From: an uncultured Candidatus Nemicrothrix sp.
Lineage (GTDB): Bacteria; Actinomycetota; Acidimicrobiia; Acidimicrobiales; MedAcidi-G1
Assembly (NCBI GenBank): GCA_964456295.1
Contig: CAYWBE010000001.1
Coordinates: 1-62,182 of the forward strand
Direction: 5' to 3'
DNA length: 62,182 nt
Shown here: piece after piece, positions 22,016-59,063 of the stretch
How the letters are laid out: each line of letters starts with the position of its first letter
Numbering within the stretch: position 1 is the first letter of the stretch
The notes under the pieces: generated by a model
The model's database searches: none
Told to the model about the DNA's origin: nothing
Seen by the model: the letters and a program-made list of their open reading frames with translations, nothing else
Made by a program: the position numbers and the translations under genes

Positions 22016-23503
<1,488 letters not shown>

Positions 23504-23563: not shown

Positions 23564-24976
23564 CTACTGGAGATAGGTCGACAGGCCGCGTCGGAGATAG
23601 GCCCCGTGACCCTTCTCGCCAAGGTACGTGTCGTCCTCGATCAGAACCCGCCCCTTGGACATCACGGTGTCGACCTTTCCGTCGATCGTGTAACCCTCGT
23701 ATGCCGAGTAGTCCATGCTCATGTGGTGGGTGTCGACCGAGATCTCGGTCTTGGCCGCAGGGTCGTACAGCACGATGTCAGCATCCGAACCGGGGGCGAT
23801 CACACCCTTCTGCGGATAGAGACCGAACATGCGGGCCGGGGTGGTCGAACACGTCTCCACCCACCGCTCCAGACTGAGCTCACCCATCGCTACCCCCTGG
23901 TAGATGAGGTCCATCCGGTGCTCGACGCCGCCGATCCCGTTGGGGATGGCCCGGAAGTCGTCCTTCCCGAGCTCCTTCTGGTCCTTCATGCAGAACGGGC
24001 AGTGGTCGGTGGCCACGATGGCCAGGTCGTTGGTCCGCAAGCCCCGCCACAGGTCTTTGTGGTGGGTGTGCTCCTTGGTCCGGAGGGGGGGCGAGCAGAC
24101 GTAGCCAGCGCCGGCGAAACCGGGGGCCCCGAGGTGGTCCTCCAGGTTGAGGTAGAGGTACTGAGGGCAGGTCTCGGCGAACACGTTGTGCCCAGCGTCT
24201 CGGGCCTCGGCCACCCGTTCGAGGGCCTCGCTGGCCGAGAGATGGACAAAGTAGACGGGTGCTCCAGCCACTAGGGCCAACTGGATAGCCCGATTGGTGG
24301 CCTCACCCTCCATACGAGACGGCCGGGTGATGCCGTGGTACACGGGATCGGTCTGGCCCCGGGCGGCCGCCTGCTCGGCCAGCACGTCGATGGCGATGCC
24401 GTTCTCGGCGTGCATGGTGATCAGCGCGCCGTTGTTGGCCGCCTTCTGCATCGCCCGCAAGATCTGGCCGTCGTCGCTATAGAAGACGCCCGGGTAGGCC
24501 ATGAACAGCTTGAAGCTGGTGATGCCCTCGTCTACCAGCGAGTCCATCTCCTTGAGGGCCGCGTCGTCAACGCCACCCATGATCATGTGGAAGGCGTAGT
24601 CCACGGCGCATTCACCCTCCGCTTTGGAATGCCAGAGGTCGAGACAGTCGCGGACGTTTTCGCCGGTCTTCTGGACGGCAAAGTCGATGATGGTGGTCGT
24701 ACCACCCCATGCTGCGGCCCGGGTGCCGATCTCGAAGGTGTCACTGGCGAATGTGCCACCAAACGGGAGTTCCATGTGGGTGTGGCAGTCGATACCTCCA
24801 GGCACCACGTACTTGCCGGTGGCGTCGATGACTCGGTCCGCGCCCGACTCAGCGGCCTGTGCCGGTGCAGAGCCCGGGGCCATCACTGCGACGATGGAAG
24901 TCCCGTCGACCAGCACCTCGGCGGCATGGCGTCCTGTGGCGCTGACCACGGTCCCGTTCTTTATGAGTGTCGTCAT
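23564..24976 (-). CDS. pydB: dihydropyrimidinase / D-hydantoinase
   Basis: 470 aa. GGIDCHTHMELPF (HxH metal site), SFKLFMAY (carbamylated Lys), HAENG, and DHCPF near the C-terminus. Confidence 0.9.
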   Translation of the reverse strand: MTTLIKNGTVVSATGRHAAEVLVDGTSIVAVMAPGSAPAQAAESGADRVIDATGKYVVPGGIDCHTHMELPFGGTFASDTFEIGTRAAAWGGTTTIIDFAVQKTGENVRDCLDLWHSKAEGECAVDYAFHMIMGGVDDAALKEMDSLVDEGITSFKLFMAYPGVFYSDDGQILRAMQKAANNGALITMHAENGIAIDVLAEQAAARGQTDPVYHGITRPSRMEGEATNRAIQLALVAGAPVYFVHLSASEALERVAEARDAGHNVFAETCPQYLYLNLEDHLGAPGFAGAGYVCSPPLRTKEHTHHKDLWRGLRTNDLAIVATDHCPFCMKDQKELGKDDFRAIPNGIGGVEHRMDLIYQGVAMGELSLERWVETCSTTPARMFGLYPQKGVIAPGSDADIVLYDPAAKTEISVDTHHMSMDYSAYEGYTIDGKVDTVMSKGRVLIEDDTYLGEKGHGAYLRRGLSTYLQ

Positions 24977-25023: not shown

Positions 25024-26313
25024 TCAGCCCAGGCGTTCGATGATCCCGGCCAACACCGTTCCGGCCTCGTCGATCTCCTCTTCGGTGACCGTCATCGGCG
25101 GCGCGATTCGCAGCACGTTTCCGTACAACCCACCCTTGCCGATGAGAAGGCCGGCTGCACGTGCCTCCTCCATGATCCGTCCGGCGGCCACAGCATCGGG
25201 TTCGATGGTCCCGGGCTGAACCGTCTCCAACGCACGCATCAGACCCTTGCCCCGTAGTTCAGCGACTGCCTCCGAGGCGTCGACAGCGGGCTGCAGGTGC
25301 CCAACTAGACGCTCACCCATGCGAAGCGCGTGGCCCTGTATGTCGTGCTCGAGCATGTACCGGATTGTCGCCAAGGCACCGACACTGCTTAGGGGGTTCC
25401 CACCAAAGGTGGACAGGGAGTTGCCCGGTAGCGAGTCCATCAAGTCTGCGCTTGCCACCAAGCCACCGAGGGAAAGTCCGTTGGCGACACCCTTGGCGAA
25501 GGTCAGGACGTCGGGCACGATGCCGTGGGCTTGGTATCCCCAGAAGTGCTCGCCAGTCCGGCCCCAGCCGGTCTGGACTTCATCGGAGATGAAGATCACA
25601 CCACGGTTTTCGAGTTCTTTCTTCATAGCCCCGAAGAAGCCATCGGGGGGCGTGGCGAATCCGCCGACGCCCTGGATGGGCTCGGCAATCATGGCCGCCA
25701 CGTCGCCCGAGGTCATCATGTCGAAGACTTGGGTGAGGTCGTCGACGCAGGCAGCCGTGTAGTCCTCATCGTCGAGGTGGCGGAACGGGCTACGCAGCCG
25801 GTAGCCGCCATGCACGTAGTTGACCGACATCCCGCTGACGCTGGTCGGCGACCAGGACCTCTGGGCTGTGATGGCAATCGTGGTGAACGAACGTCCGTGA
25901 TAGCTGTTGCGCATGGCCAGGATCTGGTTTGACCGTCGAGCCGCCGTCGCCAACATGAGGGCGGCGTCGTTGGCCTCCGTACCCGACGTGGTGAAGAACA
26001 CCTTGGCGTCGGGGATGCCCGACAGCCTGGCAATCTCTTCGGCCAACTCGATCATGCACCCCGATAGGTAGAGCGTCGAAGTGTGGAACGTCTTAGGTGC
26101 CTGCTCCTGTACGGCCTTGGTGACCTCAGGGATGTTGTAGCCAAGGCTGGTGGTGAGGATCCCGCCGAAGAAGTCGAGGTAGCGGTTTCCCTCGACGTCA
26201 TAGACATGGCGTCCCTCTCCCCGGTCAAATGAGATCGGAGGGTCGTAATAGAGCGCCAGCCAGTTCGGCAGGACGGCCCGGTGCCTCTCGAGTAGTTCGG
26301 CGTTGGTGGTCAT
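25024..26313 (-). CDS. class III PLP aminotransferase (beta-alanine/beta-aminoisobutyrate or GABA type)
   Basis: 429 aa. FISDEVQTGWGRTG and the PLP-lysine context TFAKGVANG. Confidence 0.87.
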   Translation of the reverse strand: MTTNAELLERHRAVLPNWLALYYDPPISFDRGEGRHVYDVEGNRYLDFFGGILTTSLGYNIPEVTKAVQEQAPKTFHTSTLYLSGCMIELAEEIARLSGIPDAKVFFTTSGTEANDAALMLATAARRSNQILAMRNSYHGRSFTTIAITAQRSWSPTSVSGMSVNYVHGGYRLRSPFRHLDDEDYTAACVDDLTQVFDMMTSGDVAAMIAEPIQGVGGFATPPDGFFGAMKKELENRGVIFISDEVQTGWGRTGEHFWGYQAHGIVPDVLTFAKGVANGLSLGGLVASADLMDSLPGNSLSTFGGNPLSSVGALATIRYMLEHDIQGHALRMGERLVGHLQPAVDASEAVAELRGKGLMRALETVQPGTIEPDAVAAGRIMEEARAAGLLIGKGGLYGNVLRIAPPMTVTEEEIDEAGTVLAGIIERLG

Positions 26314-26357: not shown

Positions 26358-27200
26358 TCAGGCCTGTATCAGCGGGTCATACATGTCAGGACGACGGTCC
26401 CGGTAGAAGGCCCACTGGTTACGTACCTCATCAACCAGTTCCAAATCGAGGTCGCGCACGATCAGTTCCTCGTTCTGGTCGGAGCAGACGTCGCCCACGA
26501 ACTGTCCGCGGGGGTCCACGAAGTAGGTAGTGCCGTAGAAGTCGTTGTCACCCAGATCCTCGACCCCGACCCTGTTACTCGCGCCGACGTAGTACATGTT
26601 GGCCACCGCCGAGGCGGGCTGCTCGAGTTTCCAGAGGTAGGAGGACAGACCGCGACTGGTGGCCGACGGGTTGAAGACCATCTGGGCTCCATTGAGGCCA
26701 AGCGCCCGCCATCCCTCAGGGAAGTGGCGGTCGTAGCAGATGTATATGCCGACCCGACCGACGGCGGTCTCGAACACGGGGTACCCGAGGTTCCCGGGGC
26801 GGAAGTAGAACTTCTCCCAGAAGCCCTTGACCTGGGGAAGATGGGTCTTGCGGTACTTGCCGAGGTAGGTGCCATCAGCGTCGATGATGGCCGCCGTGTT
26901 GTAGAGGAACCCCTCCTGCTCCTTTTCGTACATCGGCAAGACGAGCACCATGCCATGCTTGGCTGCCAATTCTTGGAAACGCTTCGTAGTCGGGCCGTCG
27001 GGGATGGCCTCGGCGTAGTCGTAGAAGGCGGCGTCTTGGACCTGACAGAAATAGGGACCGTAGAAGAGTTCCTGGAAGCACATGACCCGAGCGCCAGCCT
27101 CAGCGGCCTCAGCCAGGTACTTCTCGTGGAGTTCGATCATTGACTCCTTGTCACCGGTCCAGCCCGTCTGGACCATCGCCGCCCGTACTTCGCTCGCCAC
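26358..27200 (-). CDS. pydC: beta-ureidopropionase (nitrilase-superfamily N-carbamoyl-beta-amino acid amidohydrolase)
   Basis: 280 aa. Catalytic Glu context CFQELF, Lys context KTHLP, Cys context ICYDRHFPE. GTG start behind aggagg. Confidence 0.85.
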   Translation of the reverse strand: MASEVRAAMVQTGWTGDKESMIELHEKYLAEAAEAGARVMCFQELFYGPYFCQVQDAAFYDYAEAIPDGPTTKRFQELAAKHGMVLVLPMYEKEQEGFLYNTAAIIDADGTYLGKYRKTHLPQVKGFWEKFYFRPGNLGYPVFETAVGRVGIYICYDRHFPEGWRALGLNGAQMVFNPSATSRGLSSYLWKLEQPASAVANMYYVGASNRVGVEDLGDNDFYGTTYFVDPRGQFVGDVCSDQNEELIVRDLDLELVDEVRNQWAFYRDRRPDMYDPLIQA

Positions 27201-27320: not shown

Positions 27321-28376
27321 ATGGTCGGACCCGGGGAAACGTTGGACGATATGGATGGGCTCCTCGACTGGCCGGCCCTGCAGGCCTGGCTCACCAGAAG
27401 CCCAGCGCCGGGCAATGGTGCGGTGGTGGCCTTCCGGGAACTGGCGGGCGGCACCCAGAACCACCTCTTCCACCTGACCCGCGAGGATGGGACGGCGATG
27501 GTCCTTCGACGGCCGCCCCGACATCCCCGGCCGAACAGTGACGAGACGATGCTCCGGGAGGCTCGGGTGCTGGACGCCCTGTCGGGAAGCGATGTCCCCC
27601 ACCCAGCTTTTTACGCTGTGTGCGACGACCCGTCGGTGATCGGCACCTGCTTCCACCTCGGGGCGATGGTCGACGGCTTCAACCCGGGATCTGGGCTGGA
27701 GGGCCGGTACATCGACGACGAGGGCTGGCAGTGGTCGCTCGGACTGTCCATGGTCGACGCCATCGCCGAGCTGGCCGCCGTCGACCCGGCCGCCGTCGGA
27801 CTGGCCGACCTCGGGCGCCCCGACGGGTGGCTGGAACGCCAGGTGCCGCGCTGGCGGGCCCTACTGGAGTCCTACGCGGGCGCCGAGGGATACGACGGGC
27901 CGGACCTTCCTGACGTGGACCGGGTCGGGGCCTGGTTGGAGGAGCACCGTCCGGCGGCCGCCACCATCGGAATCATCCACGGCGACTTCCACCTGGCCAA
28001 CGTGATGGCCCGACACGACCGGCCGGAGGTCGCAGCGGTGGTCGACTGGGAACTCACGACCTCGGGCGATCCACGGCTCGACCTGGCATGGCTCCTGGCC
28101 ACGTCCCGGGGCGTCGGCTCGTTCCCATCGGCGGCACCGGGCTTCCCCGACTGGAGACACCTGGTCGACCGCTACGCCGAGCGGACGGGCCTCCCACTCG
28201 ACGACCTCGCCTGGTGGTGGACCCTGGCCTGCTACAAGCTGGGCATCATCCTGGAGGGCACCAACGTCCGGGCGGCAGCCGGTCGGGCCCCGGCCGAGAC
28301 CGGGCGCGACCTCCACGACCGGGCGGTCCGTCTCCTCACCATGGCCGGTCGGCTGGTCGACGGAACCGTCCTGTGA
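27321..28376 (+). CDS. phosphotransferase (APH/choline-kinase-like) family protein
   Basis: 351 aa. Brenner and catalytic motifs IIHGDFHLANVM and VVDWEL. The start could instead be the ATG about 30 nt downstream (MDGLLDW). Confidence 0.75.
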   Translation: MVGPGETLDDMDGLLDWPALQAWLTRSPAPGNGAVVAFRELAGGTQNHLFHLTREDGTAMVLRRPPRHPRPNSDETMLREARVLDALSGSDVPHPAFYAVCDDPSVIGTCFHLGAMVDGFNPGSGLEGRYIDDEGWQWSLGLSMVDAIAELAAVDPAAVGLADLGRPDGWLERQVPRWRALLESYAGAEGYDGPDLPDVDRVGAWLEEHRPAAATIGIIHGDFHLANVMARHDRPEVAAVVDWELTTSGDPRLDLAWLLATSRGVGSFPSAAPGFPDWRHLVDRYAERTGLPLDDLAWWWTLACYKLGIILEGTNVRAAAGRAPAETGRDLHDRAVRLLTMAGRLVDGTVL

Positions 28377-28393: not shown

Positions 28394-29788
28394 ATGGGGG
28401 CCATGCGGCGCCGGGAGTTCCTGACCGGGCTGGCGGCCACCGTGGGCCTGGCGGCCTGCGGCTCAGCAGCGGTGGACACACGCTCTGGCGTCCGGACCGG
28501 CTCAGTGGCATCGACGGCCGGCGCCCCACCGGCCGGCTCGCCACTCCCCGAACTGGTGGACTGGCGGATCACCCGGTGGAGGGCCGACCCGTGGGCCCGG
28601 GGCGCCTACTCGTACCTCGCTCCCGGAGCGTCGTCCGCCACCCGCCGCACCCTGGCTGCGCCGGTCGACGACCGGCTCTTCTTCGCCGGGGAGGCCACCG
28701 ACGTGGACCACCCGGCCACCGTGCACGGGGCACTGGCCTCGGGCCGACGGGCGGCGGCCGAGGTGCTGGCCACCGCGCCCCCCGATCCGGTCGTGGTGGT
28801 GGGCGCCGGCGTGGCCGGTCTGGGCGCGGCCCGTGACCTGGTGGCAGCCGGGCGGTCGGTGGTGGTCCTCGAGGCCCGGGACCGGATCGGTGGTCGGGTG
28901 TGGAGCGAGGACGTGGGCGACGCGGTGGTCGACCTCGGTGGTTCGTGGCTCCACGGGCTGCGGGACAACCCGGTCGCCGGGATCGCCGAGTCGCTCGGCG
29001 TCGACCTGGTCCGCACCGACTACGAGGACGCGCTCCTCTTCGACGCCGACGGCAGGCCGGTGCCGTGGTCCCGCCTGGATGACCACTACGAGGCCGTCGA
29101 GGCGCTGCTGGACTCCAGTGCCTCCACGTCGTCGATGTCGGGGGCGGTGGAGGAACTCCGAAGCCGGTTCAGCGGCGACGACCGTCGGTACCTCGACTAC
29201 GTACTGACCTCGGAGGTCGACCACTGGTACGCAGCAGGCCCCGAGGACCTCTCGTTCGCCGCCGTACACGAGGGCGGGTGGTCGCGGGGTGGCGATGCCG
29301 TCCCCCGGACCTCGTACCGACCCATCGTGGACTGGATGGCCGACGGCCTGGACGTCCGGACCGGTGAAGCCGTGGAGGCCATCCGGTCGGGCGGAGCCGA
29401 CACCATCGTGTCGACGGTGCGTGGCGAGCACCGGTGTGGGGCCGTGGTGATCACCATCCCCCTCGGTGTCCTGCAGGCCGGGGCCGTCGAGTTCCAGCCA
29501 ACCCTCCCGGGGCCGAAGCGGGTGGCCATCGGGGCTCTGGGCATGGGCGTGATGGACAAGGTGGTCCTGCGGTTCGCCGAGCCGTTCTGGCCCACCGGGG
29601 TCGACCTGTTCTCCCATGCCTCGGAGCCACCGGGCCGGTTCGTGGAGTGGTACAACGCGGTGCCGTGGACCGAGCGACCGATCCTGGTCGGCTTCAACGC
29701 CGGCCGTCCGGCTGACGAGGTGGAGCGGTGGTCCGACGACGAGACCCTGGATGCCGCCCTCGGGGTCCTGGGCCGGATCCGATGGTGA
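28394..29788 (+). CDS. flavin-containing amine oxidase, Tat-exported lipoprotein, circularly permuted domain order
   Basis: The start is taken at MGAMRRREFLTGLAATVGLAAC (twin-Arg motif plus lipobox). The canonical C-terminal FAD segment (RWRADPWARGAYSY...RLFFAGEAT...TVHGALASGRRAA) precedes the canonical N-terminal VVVVGAGVAGLGAARDL...VVVLEARDRIGGR motif. Confidence 0.85.
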   Translation: MGAMRRREFLTGLAATVGLAACGSAAVDTRSGVRTGSVASTAGAPPAGSPLPELVDWRITRWRADPWARGAYSYLAPGASSATRRTLAAPVDDRLFFAGEATDVDHPATVHGALASGRRAAAEVLATAPPDPVVVVGAGVAGLGAARDLVAAGRSVVVLEARDRIGGRVWSEDVGDAVVDLGGSWLHGLRDNPVAGIAESLGVDLVRTDYEDALLFDADGRPVPWSRLDDHYEAVEALLDSSASTSSMSGAVEELRSRFSGDDRRYLDYVLTSEVDHWYAAGPEDLSFAAVHEGGWSRGGDAVPRTSYRPIVDWMADGLDVRTGEAVEAIRSGGADTIVSTVRGEHRCGAVVITIPLGVLQAGAVEFQPTLPGPKRVAIGALGMGVMDKVVLRFAEPFWPTGVDLFSHASEPPGRFVEWYNAVPWTERPILVGFNAGRPADEVERWSDDETLDAALGVLGRIRW

Positions 29789-30713: not shown

Positions 30714-31031
30714 TCAGCGGGGCCTGGTCGGCCGGTCGAAGGTCGCGTCGTCGACCCCGATCTGACGAGCCCATCGCCGGGCCCAGCGACCGGCCACCGG
30801 ATCCAGGTGATCGGCGGCCCCGACCAGCCAGTCCATCGGGAGTTCGTCGGTGACCCATCCCCGGTCGGTCAGTCTGAACCCACCGCGGGAGCCGAACCGG
30901 CCCGCCAGGAGGTAGAGGCCGAGGAAGTCGCCGTCCGGATCGGCCTCGGCCAGGTACACGCGGTCAGGCCTGGGGAGGCCATGGTCCCGGTAGTCCGGCC
31001 CCGGGCCGAGGGGGTCGATGTTGTTCGCCAT
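30714..31031 (-). CDS. hypothetical protein (105 aa)
   Basis: ORF with reasonable composition. I recognised no family. Confidence 0.4.
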   Translation of the reverse strand: MANNIDPLGPGPDYRDHGLPRPDRVYLAEADPDGDFLGLYLLAGRFGSRGGFRLTDRGWVTDELPMDWLVGAADHLDPVAGRWARRWARQIGVDDATFDRPTRPR

Positions 31032-31082: not shown

Positions 31083-31661
31083 TCACCCCAGTTCCACCGG
31101 CCTCGAGTAGAGGAGTTCGTGGATCATGCGCTGTGCGGCACCATCCGAGCGCCAGGGCGCCCCCGAACCGGAGGATGCCGCCGCCCCTGGTCTCCGCCGG
31201 GAGCGCATGCCGACCACCCGGTCATCGGGAACGGCCCGCAGCCCCGTGGCCCCGGCACCGTCGGCGGGTTGGTCGAGGGCCCACGAGAACGCGGCCTGCC
31301 GGAATGCCTCGACCCGTCGATCCTGACGTCGGACCTCGCGGTCGAGGTCGGCCAACTGCAGCAGACAGACGTACCCCGAGCCCTCGACCAGCGCGCCGAC
31401 CGCATCGGGGAGGGCAGCGAACGGAACCCGGCCAGCCTCACAGTCTTCGACCAGTTCCTCGTCCAGTCCGTGCTGCTCGGCGAAGGCCGCACGATCCGTC
31501 CCGATCACACCCCGGGCTGCCACCGCGGTGGCCGCGGCCACCGGGTGGACCAGTCCGGCCTCCCGGTAGCGGGTGGCCAGGCCCAGCACCGCGTGGGTCA
31601 TCTCCATGGGCATGCCCGGTGGGCCAGCCCGTCGGTCGCCCGCCCCCCGGTCGCCGATCAT
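31083..31661 (-). CDS. hypothetical protein, translationally coupled to the sigma-like gene
   Basis: The start is taken at ATG 31661, an ATGA overlap with the upstream stop. There is no TM segment and no ZAS motif. A possible short HTH is AFAEQHGLDEELVEDCEAG. Confidence 0.45.
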   Translation of the reverse strand: MIGDRGAGDRRAGPPGMPMEMTHAVLGLATRYREAGLVHPVAAATAVAARGVIGTDRAAFAEQHGLDEELVEDCEAGRVPFAALPDAVGALVEGSGYVCLLQLADLDREVRRQDRRVEAFRQAAFSWALDQPADGAGATGLRAVPDDRVVGMRSRRRPGAAASSGSGAPWRSDGAAQRMIHELLYSRPVELG

Positions 31662-32395
31662 GCGGCCAACCACCAGATCTCGAGCAACGGCACCAGCGAC
31701 GGGTCGTCGTCGATGGCGGCCAGCAGCTTCCGGCGGGTCCGCGAGAAGATCTGCCGGACGTTGTCGGGGCTGAGCCGGAACTCGCGGGCCACGGTGTGTG
31801 AAGGCGACGGGTCGCCGTTGGACCGCTGGACCACGTACTCCAGCACCACCTCGTAGTCACGCTCGGACGCCACCTCGCGCAACGTGTCCAGGAGGAGCCG
31901 GACGAACGGGTGGCGGCAGGCCAGGCGGACGAAGTCCTCCACGACCCGGTCCTCACCGGTCGACTCACCCGGCGCCGGTGGACGACCACCGGCATCCTCC
32001 CCCTCGTCGAACGACCCGTCGTCGAGGTCGGTCACCCGGTGGCCGACGGCGTCGTAGACCATGGCCCGGATGGCCATCGATGCCCACGTCCACGGCATCG
32101 CCCCACCGTCGGGGGACCAACCGGCCGCCCGGTCGCGGATCACCAGGCAGGCCCAGTTGACCAGACCGGTCATCTCGTCCTCGTCGCGCAGGATGTCGCG
32201 CCGGCCCATGTCCTCCAGCACCCGCCGGACCACGAAGCGCACCCTGTGCCCGTGCTCCTGGATGAGCGTGAAGAACGCCGCATCATCGCCACCCACGATG
32301 CGACGCATCAGATCGGCCACCTGCTCCCGATCGCCGCGGCCGGAGCCGCCATTCATTCCGTTGTTCGCCATTCCTCGCCAATTCCCTTTCGCCAA
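31658..32395 (-). CDS. divergent sigma-70/ECF-like RNA polymerase sigma factor (tentative)
   Basis: Region-2-like segment FFTLIQEHGHRVRFVVRRVLEDMG...EMTGLVNWACLVIRDRAAGW. Region-4-like HTH SERDYEVVLEYVV...HTVAREFRLSPDNVRQIFSRTRRKL. Alternative start at MANNGMNGG. Confidence 0.5.
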   Translation of the reverse strand: MAKGNWRGMANNGMNGGSGRGDREQVADLMRRIVGGDDAAFFTLIQEHGHRVRFVVRRVLEDMGRRDILRDEDEMTGLVNWACLVIRDRAAGWSPDGGAMPWTWASMAIRAMVYDAVGHRVTDLDDGSFDEGEDAGGRPPAPGESTGEDRVVEDFVRLACRHPFVRLLLDTLREVASERDYEVVLEYVVQRSNGDPSPSHTVAREFRLSPDNVRQIFSRTRRKLLAAIDDDPSLVPLLEIWWLAA

Positions 32396-55751: not shown

Positions 55752-55786
55752 GGTCGGTTCTCCGGATGTCGGACCCGCGTACGGGG

Positions 55787-56488
55787 TCAGCTCCCCACGA
55801 ACAGGTCGAAGAGGCGTTCGTCGGCCCTCAGGTCGGCGCCGGTTCCCTCGGCCACCACGCCGCCGCTTCGCAGCACGTAGGCCCGATCGGCCACCTCCAG
55901 CATGCGGGTGGCGTTCTGCTCGACCACCAGCAGGGTGCGCCCCTGGGCCCGCAGCGTCTCGACCAGCTCGAAGACCACGTCGACGAGGATCGGCGCCAGG
56001 CCGAGCGAGGGCTCGTCCATCATCAACAACCGGGGTCGGGCCATGAGCGCCCGCCCGATGGCCAGCTGCTGGGCCTCGCCGCCCGACAGGTAGCCGGCCG
56101 CCGTGGTCCACTTGGACCGCAACACCGGGAACAACCCGGCCATCTCGTCGAGCAGGGCGCCCCGCTCGCCGGCCGGGACGGTCACCCCACCGACCCGGAG
56201 GTTCTCCTCCACGGTGAGGTCGGTGAAGATCCGTCGGTGCTCGGGCACCAGGGCCAGCCCGGCCCGGAGGAGGTCCTCCGGCGGCCGACCGGTGACGTCG
56301 TCGCCGTCGAGGGTGACGCTGCCCGACCGCGGCGCCAGCAGGCCGGCGATGGTGTTGAGCAGCGTGGTCTTGCCCGCGCCGTTGGGCCCGATGAGGCCGA
56401 CGACCTCACCGGACCCGACGTGCAGGTCTGCGTCCCGAAGTGCCTGGATCTCACCGTAGGCGGTCGTGAGACCCGACACCTCGAGCAC
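55787..56488 (-). CDS. livF: branched-chain-type ABC transporter ATP-binding protein (LivF-like)
   Basis: 233 aa. GPNGAGKTTLLN, LSGGEAQQLAIGRAL, LLMMDEPSLGL. Confidence 0.9.
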   Translation of the reverse strand: MLEVSGLTTAYGEIQALRDADLHVGSGEVVGLIGPNGAGKTTLLNTIAGLLAPRSGSVTLDGDDVTGRPPEDLLRAGLALVPEHRRIFTDLTVEENLRVGGVTVPAGERGALLDEMAGLFPVLRSKWTTAAGYLSGGEAQQLAIGRALMARPRLLMMDEPSLGLAPILVDVVFELVETLRAQGRTLLVVEQNATRMLEVADRAYVLRSGGVVAEGTGADLRADERLFDLFVGS

Positions 56489-56494
56489 GGGCGG

Positions 56495-58960
56495 TCAGCC
56501 GCCGATGGTGGCGACGAGGGTGTCGGCGCCGTCGACGATGCGGGCGATCGGGACCGCCTTGGGCGGGATGCCGTTGGTGCCCGCGTAGGTGATCTCTCCC
56601 GACAGGCCGGCGAAGCCCGAGATCTGCGCCACGGCCTGGCCGATGCCGGCCGGGTCGTCACAGCCACAGTCCAGGATCCCCTGGATGCCCAGGAACAACG
56701 AGTCCACGTAGAGCGGCATGAACCCGCGGCTCTCCAACGCCTCGCCCTTCGCCGCCTCGTAGCTGGCCAGCAACTGGTCGTTGCGGTCGCCGGCGACGAT
56801 GTTCACGTGCGGCGTGTGGGCGATGCCCTCGTTGTTGGCCTCCACCTGGATGCCCGTGGCGTCCATGGCGTCGGTCCCGATGTAGGTCAGCCCGTCCAGG
56901 CCCTGGCCCTCGAGCTGGCCACGCAACGCCGTGACCTGGAAGGCCAACGCCGCCGAGAACACCACCTCGTCGTTCTGCGAGATCTGCGCGATCTCGTTCA
57001 CCTGCGCCGAGAAGTCGGTGTCAGCCGCCCACACGTACGTCTGGGTCGACACCACCTCGCCACCGCCGGCCTCGAACGCCGCGATGAACGCATCCGGGTT
57101 CACCCCGGTGTAGGGGATCCCCTCGCCCTCGGTGAACACGATCGCCCGCGAGATGCCCTGGTCGAGCGCCCACCGGGCCGCCGCCGAGGACTGCCCATGG
57201 TCGTCGAACGTCACCAGGTACGAGTTGATCGACGCATCGGCCAACGTCGGCTCCGTCGACGCCGCCACGAACATCGGCACCCCGCCACCCGTGGTCTGCA
57301 GGATCGGCAGGGCGAAGTCCGCGAACGGCGGACCGATCAGGAACTGGGCACCCCAGTCCAGCAACTCCTGGGCCGCCAACGCCGCGTCATCGCCGACCTC
57401 GGCGACACGGACCTCCACCGGACGACCATCGATGCCGCCCGTGCAGTTGATCAACTCGGCCACGTACGGCACCAGCTTCGAACCCGGGATGTCCACGAAC
57501 CCCACCACGTCGGAGAAGTCCATCGCCATCCCCACACGGATCGGATCACCCGACGGCGCATCCGCACACGCCGACAGATCCGCCGCGACCACCGCATCCA
57601 CATCCAGACCCGACGGGGAAACCGGAGCAGCGGTCACACCGCCCTCCCAGTCGGTGCCGATGGTGGCGACGAGGGTGTCGGCGCCGTCGACGATGCGGGC
57701 GATCGGGACCGCCTTGGGCGGGATGCCGTTGGTGCCCGCGTAGGTGATCTCTCCCGACAGGCCGGCGAAGCCCGAGATCTGCGCCACGGCCTGGCCGATG
57801 CCGGCCGGGTCGTCACAGCCACAGTCCAGGATCCCCTGGATGCCCAGGAACAACGAGTCCACGTAGAGCGGCATGAACCCGCGGCTCTCCAACGCCTCGC
57901 CCTTCGCCGCCTCGTAGCTGGCCAGCAACTGGTCGTTGCGGTCGCCGGCGACGATGTTCACGTGCGGCGTGTGGGCGATGCCCTCGTTGTTGGCCTCCAC
58001 CTGGATGCCCGTGGCGTCCATGGCGTCGGTCCCGATGTAGGTCAGCCCGTCCAGGCCCTGGCCCTCGAGCTGGCCACGCAACGCCGTGACCTGGAAGGCC
58101 AACGCCGCCGAGAACACCACCTCGTCGTTCTGCGAGATCTGCGCGATCTCGTTCACCTGCGCCGAGAAGTCGGTGTCAGCCGCCCACACGTACGTCTGGG
58201 TCGACACCACCTCGCCACCGCCGGCCTCGAACGCCGCGATGAACGCATCCGGGTTCACCCCGGTGTAGGGGATCCCCTCGCCCTCGGTGAACACGATCGC
58301 CCGCGAGATGCCCTGGTCGAGCGCCCACCGGGCCGCCGCCGAGGACTGCCCATGGTCGTCGAACGTCACCAGGTACGAGTTGATCGACGCATCGGCCAAC
58401 GTCGGCTCCGTCGACGCCGCCACGAACATCGGCACCCCGCCACCCGTGGTCTGCAGGATCGGCAGGGCGAAGTCCGCGAACGGCGGACCGATCAGGAACT
58501 GGGCACCCCAGTCCAGCAACTCCTGGGCCGCCAACGCCGCGTCATCGCCGACCTCGGCGACACGGACCTCCACCGGACGACCATCGATGCCGCCCGTGCA
58601 GTTGATCAACTCGGCCACGTACGGCACCAGCTTCGAACCCGGGATGTCCACGAACCCCACCACGTCGGAGAAGTCCATCGCCATCCCCACACGGATCGGA
58701 TCACCCGACGGCGCATCCGCACACGCCGACAGATCCGCCGCGACCACCGCATCCACATCCAGACCCGACGGGGAAACCGGAGCAGCGGCGTCGGATCCGC
58801 CGTCGTCGGCGGCCGTGGTGGCCGGAGCGGCGGTGGTCGCCGGCGCGGCGGTGGTGGCAGGTGCCGCGTCGGAACCGCCGTCGTCGCTGCCGCAGGCCGA
58901 GGCCACCAGGGCCAGGACCGACAGGACGGAAAAGAGGACAATCGTGGACTTCTTCTTCAT
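56495..58960 (-). CDS. Liv/amide-type ABC substrate-binding lipoprotein with two identical tandem type-I PBP domains
   Basis: 821 aa. Signal plus lipobox MKKKSTIVLFSVLSVLALVASAC, then an (APATTA)x3 linker. A 377-aa block (PVSPSGLDVD...ADTLVATIG) then occurs twice, joined by the linker TDWEGGV. Confidence 0.85.
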   Translation of the reverse strand: MKKKSTIVLFSVLSVLALVASACGSDDGGSDAAPATTAAPATTAAPATTAADDGGSDAAAPVSPSGLDVDAVVAADLSACADAPSGDPIRVGMAMDFSDVVGFVDIPGSKLVPYVAELINCTGGIDGRPVEVRVAEVGDDAALAAQELLDWGAQFLIGPPFADFALPILQTTGGGVPMFVAASTEPTLADASINSYLVTFDDHGQSSAAARWALDQGISRAIVFTEGEGIPYTGVNPDAFIAAFEAGGGEVVSTQTYVWAADTDFSAQVNEIAQISQNDEVVFSAALAFQVTALRGQLEGQGLDGLTYIGTDAMDATGIQVEANNEGIAHTPHVNIVAGDRNDQLLASYEAAKGEALESRGFMPLYVDSLFLGIQGILDCGCDDPAGIGQAVAQISGFAGLSGEITYAGTNGIPPKAVPIARIVDGADTLVATIGTDWEGGVTAAPVSPSGLDVDAVVAADLSACADAPSGDPIRVGMAMDFSDVVGFVDIPGSKLVPYVAELINCTGGIDGRPVEVRVAEVGDDAALAAQELLDWGAQFLIGPPFADFALPILQTTGGGVPMFVAASTEPTLADASINSYLVTFDDHGQSSAAARWALDQGISRAIVFTEGEGIPYTGVNPDAFIAAFEAGGGEVVSTQTYVWAADTDFSAQVNEIAQISQNDEVVFSAALAFQVTALRGQLEGQGLDGLTYIGTDAMDATGIQVEANNEGIAHTPHVNIVAGDRNDQLLASYEAAKGEALESRGFMPLYVDSLFLGIQGILDCGCDDPAGIGQAVAQISGFAGLSGEITYAGTNGIPPKAVPIARIVDGADTLVATIGG
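56501..57633. repeat. tandem direct repeat, copy 1 (1133 bp, identical to 57656-58788)
   Basis: The offset is 1155 nt (385 codons). I checked both boundaries base by base. The internal six-frame ORFs 56931/58086 and 57132/58287 have identical sequences. Confidence 0.97.
57656..58788. repeat. tandem direct repeat, copy 2 (1133 bp)
   Basis: Same evidence as copy 1. The unique 22-nt junction tcacaccgccctcccagtcggt lies at 57634-57655. Confidence 0.97.
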
Positions 58961-59011
58961 TTGGTGACACCCCTCGGGTCGTTTAGCCGGGTTCCCACCC
59001 GGACGATGGAA

Positions 59012-59040
59012 TATTTACATACAAAATCTAAATTTACCAA
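59012..59040 (-). promoter_or_regulatory. sigma-70-like promoter for the liv-type operon: TTGGTA-17 nt-TAAATA
   Basis: Read on the minus strand within the AT-rich stretch 59008-59050. A 5' UTR hairpin (ccgggtgggaacccgg) and a gagggg SD follow before the ATG at 58960. Confidence 0.4.
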
Positions 59041-59063
59041 GACCTGATTCCCCGGCCCAGCCT

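Follow-up and report, generated by a model that had tools for sequence, protein, structure and literature searches.

A probable circularly permuted, Tat-exported flavin amine oxidase in an uncultured Candidatus Nemicrothrix, and the bacterial family that shares its order

Within a 62,182-nucleotide stretch of contig CAYWBE010000001.1 (assembly GCA_964456295.1) from an uncultured Candidatus Nemicrothrix sp., referred to here as the window, a single open reading frame (ORF) on the forward strand at 28394-29788 encodes a protein of 464 residues that, with a probability of roughly 0.82, is a real, predicted-functional, circularly permuted flavin amine oxidase of the PF01593 family, in the polyamine oxidase/LSD branch. 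The coding sequence is complete, its translation contains no internal stop, and it terminates with the stop codon at 29786-29788. Residues 1-22 (MGAMRRREFLTGLAATVGLAAC; 28394-28459) make up a predicted twin-arginine translocation (Tat) signal peptide with a lipobox, comprising RRREFL at residues 5-10, a hydrophobic stretch and LAAC, and are followed by a tether of low-complexity Ala/Ser/Gly/Pro/Thr sequence that is predicted to be disordered (residues 23-50; 28460-28543). The displaced segment, residues 51-127 (28544-28774), is homologous to the C-terminal closing piece of the flavin adenine dinucleotide (FAD) domain and carries W62-x-x-D65-P, G70-A-Y72-S73-Y, FFAGE100 and T109-V-H-G-A, after which a long helix extends to residue 127. 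The new junction APPDP (residues 128-132; 28775-28789) joins this former C-terminal helix to Rossmann beta-1. The Rossmann beta-alpha-beta unit (residues 133-162; 28790-28879), with G137-A-G139-x-x-G142 and E160 and with matches to both PF13450 and PF01593, begins VVVVGAGVAG at V133 (nt 28790) and is therefore internal rather than N-terminal. The main body as a whole (residues 133-464; 28790-29785) supplies the rest of the FAD domain and the substrate domain, contains a W185-x-H187-G motif (His codon 28952-28954) and a conserved Lys389 (codon 29558-29560), and ends ...LGRIRW464, with helix 448-461 closing it at the point where canonical enzymes run on into the segment that is displaced here. 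A preliminary description, made from the sequence, had placed the twin-arginine, lipobox, W-x-x-DP...TVHGA and VVVVGAGVAG motifs in this arrangement, and a reading of the translation finds each of them where it was put.

Two homologous segments of the amine oxidase family are present in swapped order within this one polypeptide, as in a circular permutant. PF01593 matches the protein in two stretches (213.1 bits against a cut-off of 19.8), and when the pieces are scanned separately, residues 58-124 correspond to profile positions 377-443 of 443 (E 1.5e-19) and residues 140-461 to positions 1-363 (E 1.6e-44); E-values of this order for the swapped matches exclude chance. The colinear PF01593 order, with the Rossmann unit N-terminal and FFAGE C-terminal, is not the one observed, and the protein is homologous but permuted. 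When PDB sequences are searched with phmmer, human LSD1 is aligned in three pieces, query residues 110-240 with 87-216, 300-460 with 392-561 and 49-124 with 567-654, the LSD1 positions being counted along chain 9dbp_A. Comparison by hhalign of a profile of 35 permuted family members (A1) with one of 35 canonical relatives (A2) aligns columns 128-464 of A1 to columns 42-388 of the 478 in A2 at a probability of 100%; the alignment halts exactly at the permuted C-terminus, and the canonical profile extends 90 columns beyond it. Across the site where the permuted protein ends and, after its tether, starts, the canonical relatives read ...LRTLYGPNIPEPTGYLVTRWASDP.... About 75 residues that normally close the FAD domain at its C-terminal end sit between the export signal and Rossmann beta-1, and the C-terminus falls in the loop by which, in canonical enzymes, the last substrate-domain helix is connected back to the FAD domain. 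The preliminary description had proposed a circular permutation on the strength of its motifs and had anticipated two partial PF01593 matches in swapped order; the scan returned just these, neither the PF01593 scans nor hhalign produced the colinear whole-protein alignment that it named as contrary evidence, and the swapped PF01593, LSD1 and hhalign matches together support the proposal.

Structure prediction, also called for in that description, points the same way. The AlphaFold2 model computed with A1 is a single confident two-domain fold (mean predicted local distance difference test score, pLDDT, 89.9; predicted template modelling score, pTM, 0.88). Residues 1-45 are disordered in the model, pLDDT being below 50 over residues 10-41; ten-residue blocks score at least 86, and mostly 93-98, over residues 51-464, and those of the displaced segment score 94-98 from residue 51 on. 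Searched against the PDB with Foldseek, the model matches LSD2, LSD1 and maize polyamine oxidase at E values of about 1e-25. In sequential Foldseek alignment to LSD2 the permuted model reaches a TMq of 0.66-0.67 over about 365 columns, and a control, the canonical relative P0089 modelled from A2 (pLDDT 91.0), reaches 0.82-0.83 over about 445 columns of the same LSD2 entries; the alignment of the permuted model covers only its body and falls about 80 columns short of the control, as many as the displaced segment would account for, and a sequential aligner cannot place that segment. The predicted secondary structure of that segment (strands 54-59, 72-75 and 95-97; helices 81-88 and 110-127) matches in pattern and spacing the canonical C-terminus of P0089 at residues 414-484 (strands 414-417, 430-433 and 453-455; helices 439-446 and 468-484).

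The permuted order is widely shared. A word-indexed search of 5.8 billion proteins gave 4721 matches, and the best 120 of these comprise 94 permuted clusters, 24 canonical clusters and 2 fragments; the permuted ones follow the query colinearly across 89-100% of its length, at identities that reach down to about 40%. An exhaustive HMMER scan of 1.84 billion representatives at 50% identity with the family profile gave 82,936 matches at E values up to 0.001; among the best 150, about 45 match the whole profile in one stretch, and the remainder match it in two or more stretches, like canonical enzymes. Separate hidden Markov models for the two pieces sort the 267 fetched relatives into 137 permuted (C-segment then body) and 127 canonical, and on species-representative contigs, with one genome per species, 21 of the 80 listed loci are permuted. 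Actinobacterial loci with this order come from Acidimicrobiales, Ilumatobacteraceae, Nitriliruptoraceae and Nanopelagicales, Acidimicrobiia thus included, and the isolates Cryobacterium breve, Cryobacterium sp. Y11 and Microbacterium sp. SA39 carry it as well. Proteobacterial examples are the cultured Cochlodiniinecator piscidefendens and Nitratireductor sp. XY-223, Devosia, a metagenome-assembled genome (MAG) of Rhodobacteraceae and a gammaproteobacterial MAG. The search for homologues of the same order that the preliminary description had advised therefore uncovers a large family spanning Actinomycetota and Proteobacteria. Since that family is large, old and present in at least two phyla, the permutation event did not take place in this genome, and its treatment as an event of one genome has to be given up.

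Members of the family also have the position of the break in common, most of them ending within a few residues of one alignment column and a few extending C-terminally by up to about 24 residues. Mean column identity in A1 is 48%, and its 40 invariant columns, among them G137, A138, G139, G142, E160, A98-G99-E100, K389, W185 and H187, are spread over both pieces. The tether varies across A1 in length and sequence. Members of the family differ, too, in the linker from the former C-terminal helix to beta-1, which has about 5 residues in some and up to about 17 in others, the rest of the protein being retained. A subgroup of 15 of the 137 permuted proteins (P0068, P0082, P0084, P0090, P0093, P0110, P0113, P0118, P0125, P0208, P0255 and P0265 are included) is without some 35-40 residues of a helical insert in the substrate domain, at about residues 231-268 of the window protein, and the substrate pocket of its members may differ.

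For a tree of the two forms, the displaced segment was returned to the C-terminus in silico and 276 relatives were aligned; filtering at 80% identity left 231 of them. A single split of their neighbour-joining tree holds 101 of the 104 permuted proteins together with 3 of the 127 canonical ones, and the sequences that depart from this pattern are basal, with about 50% identity to either group. In a stricter set of 189 sequences the best split contains 60 permuted and 0 canonical proteins; with the labels shuffled the score never exceeds 7, compared with the actual 60 for these 189 sequences and 98 for the fuller set. One ancient event is favoured by the tree split together with the shared break point, and a single origin of the permutation is accordingly likely but not proven from these alignments. 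The permutation would most likely have arisen once, in an enzyme already exported by the Tat pathway, and the permuted gene would most likely have been inherited later by the actinobacterial lineages, as a lipoprotein, and by the proteobacterial lineages, as a soluble periplasmic enzyme. The closest canonical relatives include an actinobacterial (Nitriliruptoraceae) protein, and the Tat-exported relatives of canonical order are likely to represent the ancestral form.

The preliminary description had further suggested that the order arose by tandem duplication and trimming, and had drawn attention to an in-frame duplication elsewhere in the window, at 56.5-58.8 kb. When tandem-duplicated intermediates were sought as it recommended, the family-profile HMMER scan, in which a double-length protein of close kinship would come out at the top, yielded no close tandem-fused intermediate among the best 150 matches from the 1.84 billion representatives. 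The sole multi-module match is a protein of 1449 residues with three canonical modules from the wasp Chelonus insularis (P0130, XP_034936671.1). Its polyamine-oxidase-like modules lie head to tail with linkers of a few residues (around ...LYKPSPKIVIIGAG...), and the entry is flagged LOW QUALITY PROTEIN; it probably represents tandem genes fused by the gene model and is only distantly related. Duplication and trimming is still a hypothesis, for and against which the search for intermediates is neutral. The duplication within the window is an exact direct repeat (56501-57633 and 57656-58788; 1133 nt, 100% identity, offset 1155 nt or 385 codons and thus in frame) inside a forward-strand ORF at 55766-59047 that encodes 1093 residues. 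Because the identity is perfect, this repeat is either very recent or an assembly artefact, and the permutation is old and family-wide and predates the split of the phyla, so that the repeat is ruled out as a related event.

Export is indicated by both elements of the leader. The signal reads M-R-R-R-E-F-L-T-G-L-A-A-T-V-G-L-A-A, with the twin arginines (S/T-R-R-x-F-L-K type) and hydrophobic stretch of a Tat signal, and the lipobox L19-A20-A21-C22 agrees with the consensus [LVI][ASTVI][GAS]C (PMC12462473). R6, R7 and C22 are each at least 90% conserved in A1. A leader of 18 residues or more is present in 145 permuted relatives; a strict pattern detects the RR motif in 125 of these and RR plus the lipobox Cys in 102, and many of the remaining leaders are pattern misses or mis-called starts. 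The earlier prediction of a Tat lipoprotein stands, both motifs being present and conserved. Canonical relatives carry a Tat signal in 77 of 108 cases and a lipobox in 23, and since they too bear Tat signals the ancestor was probably already exported. Proteobacterial permuted members (loci L012, L013, L019, L021, L024 and L073) are shorter, at about 407-414 residues, and have a Tat-type signal without the lipobox Cys; to judge from these leaders they are probably soluble periplasmic enzymes, and their occurrence suggests either inter-phylum transfer of the permuted gene or a very old origin. Tat export suits a protein that needs FAD bound before it crosses the membrane. The precursor would bind FAD and fold in the cytoplasm and would then be exported in folded form by the Tat pathway through RRREFL; Cys22, the predicted first mature residue, would be lipidated and the signal cleaved, leaving the mature enzyme on its tether of about 28 residues, on the outside of the membrane. 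The host would be a monoderm, marine, Acidimicrobiia-like actinobacterium.

With regard to chemistry, the dinucleotide motif GxGxxG with the acidic residue ending beta-2 (E160) and the second FAD motif A-G-E are both present and invariant in A1. K389 aligns with the Lys of LSD1 G-F-G-N-L-N-K-V-V-L, which we take to be the active-site Lys near flavin N5 in LSD1 and polyamine oxidase. A W-[IL]-H-G-x-x-x-N-P motif follows the beta-meander of the window protein, where LGGSWLHGLRDNP aligns with LGATWIHGSHGNP of human spermine oxidase (7oxl); putrescine oxidase is without the His, which is presumably the active-site His of spermine oxidase, PAOX and Fms1. The motif is suggestive only of the polyamine/spermine oxidase subgroup, LSD1/2 being the better overall sequence matches. 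The PDB sequences that match best are those of LSD1/2, spermine oxidase, PAOX and maize polyamine oxidase, with E-values of 5.7e-53 to LSD1 and 3.4e-35 to spermine oxidase, and because these matches are the best the protein is assigned to the polyamine oxidase/LSD branch. For the fold and the export signal there is support in the data, and the substrate and electron acceptor are what we infer: the product would be an oxidase that is tethered to the membrane outside the cytoplasm and uses O2 to oxidise a polyamine-like amine. A C-N bond of such an amine would be oxidised by hydride transfer to FAD, and the flavin would most likely be re-oxidised by O2 to yield H2O2 and an imine, which would hydrolyse to an aminoaldehyde plus an amine or ammonia.

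Readings other than a working, permuted monomeric enzyme can be weighed against these observations. The exact 1133-nt tandem repeat elsewhere in the window is a reminder that the assembly may hold artefacts, and the unusual order could in principle reflect a chimera of two tandem amine oxidase genes or a wrap at a contig end. The probability of such an assembly or annotation artefact is nevertheless negligible: the gene is one uninterrupted ORF between unrelated genes, the same order and break point recur across 137 separate protein clusters and across 21 genomes that represent species, some of them from isolates, the 90% cluster of the window protein itself is found on more than 70 contigs (JGI, ENA, NCBI, Logan), and TARA Oceans contigs carry a permuted copy, 73% identical, in the same gene neighbourhood and order. 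A misassembled tandem gene pair, which the preliminary description had offered as the way in which it might be mistaken, is ruled out by these independent contigs and genomes and by the cultured strains. It is very improbable, too, that the order is real and the product fails to fold or work; rearranged genes are often pseudogenes, but here the cofactor and catalytic residues of both pieces stay invariant in a family whose identities fall from about 80% to 40%, the export signal is conserved, the C-terminus is fixed and the predicted structure has high confidence. For practical purposes, misassembly, a split gene and a pseudogene can thus be excluded. A subtler proposal leaves the gene intact and has the displaced segment complete the FAD domain of a neighbouring chain, making the enzyme an obligate dimer or chain. 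Many amine oxidases are dimers, and a linker of only 5 residues (APPDP) between helix and beta-1 would be in keeping with such a domain swap; the AlphaFold monomer run, however, puts the segment in cis with high confidence, the linker ranges as widely as described above without loss of the rest, and the helix-to-beta-1 link between modules is also short in the wasp gene model, though that may be an annotation fusion. Domain swapping is on balance improbable, and completion of the FAD domain within one chain is preferred.

The electron acceptor leaves more room for debate. NicA2 and Pnao are Tat-exported flavoprotein amine dehydrogenases of the same superfamily (PMC12224317), and they resemble the window protein in that a Tat signal carries the cofactor-loaded enzyme out of the cytoplasm; they differ from it in their canonical order, in their place in the nicotine/MAO-like branch and in usually having an adjacent cytochrome c gene. 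The same permuted fold could act as a dehydrogenase, its electrons going to an acceptor outside the cytoplasm, for example a cytochrome c whose gene lies elsewhere, and cytochrome-c-dependent dehydrogenases among the Tat-exported members of the superfamily lend this some substance, as does one Tat enzyme that reacts poorly with O2 and has no adjacent cytochrome gene (PMC12224317). No cytochrome c gene adjoining the amine oxidase gene was seen, however, either in the window or among the neighbours examined at related loci, so that of the NicA2-like pairing of a Tat signal with an adjacent gene for a Sec-exported cytochrome c only the Tat signal is present. Most of the tested Tat-signal enzymes without an adjacent cytochrome c proved to be fast, O2-using periplasmic oxidases, with the one exception just mentioned (PMC12224317), and the protein belongs to the polyamine oxidase/LSD branch, not to that of NicA2. 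We regard a dehydrogenase as unlikely and an O2-using oxidase as the better description.

Some observations do weigh against the account of an exported, polyamine-oxidising permutant of single origin. The best splits in bootstrap samples hold 50-68 permuted with 0-10 canonical sequences, and the tree lacks stability at its base. The start codon can be placed only to within 10 codons, and the gene neighbourhood is not conserved beyond close relatives. That the displaced segment keeps its canonical place in space would follow from AlphaFold confidence and the matching secondary structure, and a polyamine-type substrate is suggested by family resemblance alone.

The uncertainty over the start arises from a frame that is open further upstream, from 28088, and offers three candidates: GTG 28373, which is chosen by database gene callers and gives 471 residues, ATG 28394, and ATG 28403, which gives an MRRREFL start matching most homologues, these beginning at or just before the MRRR motif. 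The mature amine oxidase is the same whichever is used. Immediately upstream and co-directional lies a gene for an APH-family phosphotransferase (kinase) at 27321-28376 on the forward strand, whose stop is 17 nt before ATG 28394. GTG 28373 overlaps the TGA stop of this gene (28374-28376) in a GTGA arrangement, which suggests translational coupling, and in two related loci (L001 and L002) the APH-family and amine oxidase genes as called overlap by 17 nt. Downstream and again co-directional is a HemD-like gene (PF02602; 29799-30692, forward strand). Because relatives at about 50% identity have GntR-aminotransferase and radical-SAM genes in place of the APH and HemD-like genes, these two are not functional partners of the oxidase. 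Beyond the HemD-like gene, two minus-strand ORFs (30714-31031 and 31083-31673; 105 and 196 residues) have no Pfam match. RmuC follows the HemD-like gene directly in the TARA relatives, so the two ORFs may be peculiar to this lineage or may not code for protein.

A divergent cluster on the minus strand lies upstream, encoding an aldehyde dehydrogenase (22016-23503), a dihydropyrimidinase-like amidohydrolase (23564-24976), a class-III aminotransferase (25024-26313) and a carbon-nitrogen hydrolase (26358-27200), and from its gene content it looks like a reductive pyrimidine/beta-alanine catabolic set. This cluster adjoins the amine oxidase gene only among marine relatives of at least 50% identity (L001-L004), and since RmuC, PLD and GATase flanks are kept in the same relatives too, its adjacency is probably plain lineage synteny. 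The neighbours of distant members are unrelated (TetR, GntR, an ABC ATPase, enolase, a beta-lactamase-fold protein, peptidase M1, sortase), and no conserved partner in polyamine transport or catabolism is found in the gene context of the window and the related loci examined. The attempt to read a substrate from gene context was dropped for these reasons; a connection through 3-aminopropanal or beta-alanine, products of polyamine oxidation, is possible but speculative.

Comparison with known systems sets the protein in context. Polyamine and spermine oxidases and LSD1/LSD2 (1b37, 7oxl, 5lae, 4fwe, 2dw4) share its two-domain fold and FAD motifs; spermine oxidase has the W-x-H-G...NP motif in common with it, and the polyamine oxidase/LSD group the conserved Lys and the segment with W-x-x-DP, YSY and FFAGE. 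It departs from them in its permuted chain, in which profile positions 377-443 precede 1-363, in being predicted to be exported and lipid-anchored, whereas those enzymes are cytosolic, peroxisomal or nuclear, and in having neither SWIRM nor tower insertions. Nearer at hand are the canonical Tat-exported relatives (P0089, P0172 and P0175, and P0213 from a Nitriliruptoraceae MAG), which share its motifs at 40-55% identity once the order is de-permuted, and most of which have a Tat signal, sometimes with a lipobox, as in the permuted family. In these the signal leads directly into Rossmann beta-1, and the chain closes with the FFAGE segment and the final helix. Some proteins of canonical order (P0197, 912 residues; P0201, 1020; P0223, 631; P0244, 547) bear C-terminal extensions of about 100 to 570 residues. 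Natural circular permutations are known in other enzyme families, among them permuted NlpC/P60 proteins and the cpRAS and YlqF GTPases (PMC3142127, PMC2430557); they represent the same phenomenon, a homologous fold with moved termini inherited across a family, in different folds.

Flavin amine oxidases, including MAO, the polyamine oxidases and LSD1, are much-studied drug targets and biocatalysts, and to our knowledge one chain order is common to all that have been described. Database names for the present family are generic (FAD-dependent oxidoreductase, NAD(P)-binding protein, polyamine oxidase, monoamine oxidase, hypothetical protein), and NCBIfam gives only weak, Rossmann-level matches and no specific family model. 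The author of the preliminary description was aware of no permuted member, and a full-text literature search, which did not extend to the main superfamily review, likewise found no mention of a permuted flavin amine oxidase or GR2-type FAD fold; nor did a term check find a permuted flavin amine oxidase in CIRPIN, a systematic survey of permutations from 2026. The enzyme family, its chemistry and the phenomenon of permutation are all known, and it is their combination and the size of the clade that appear to be unreported. The chance is somewhat better than even that a natural circular permutation of the flavin amine oxidase (MAO/PAO/LSD, GR2-type) fold is recognised here for the first time, in the form of a largely monophyletic and consistently Tat-exported clade of at least about 45 clusters at 50% identity in Actinomycetota and Proteobacteria, derived from a Tat-exported canonical ancestor by moving the C-terminal FAD-closing segment behind the signal peptide.

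The finding changes no concept, and its use lies in enzyme engineering, annotation and evolutionary study. As the family demonstrates, the fold can be opened at the loop joining the substrate and FAD domains and its old termini closed by as few as about 5 residues, a tolerance that could be exploited in permuted biosensors, in fusions and in surface display by way of the lipid anchor. For annotation, the consequence is that profile tools give two matches and sequential structure aligners lose about 80 residues. The clade also provides a clean case for how permutations arise in a secreted, cofactor-bearing enzyme, and the permutation would be adaptive rather than neutral if placing the segment at the N-terminus influences cofactor loading or the quality control that Tat exerts ahead of export. 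The permuted clade is common in marine Acidimicrobiia, and in these organisms a surface-anchored amine oxidase could take part in the extracellular turnover of amines and polyamines and in the production of H2O2 in seawater.

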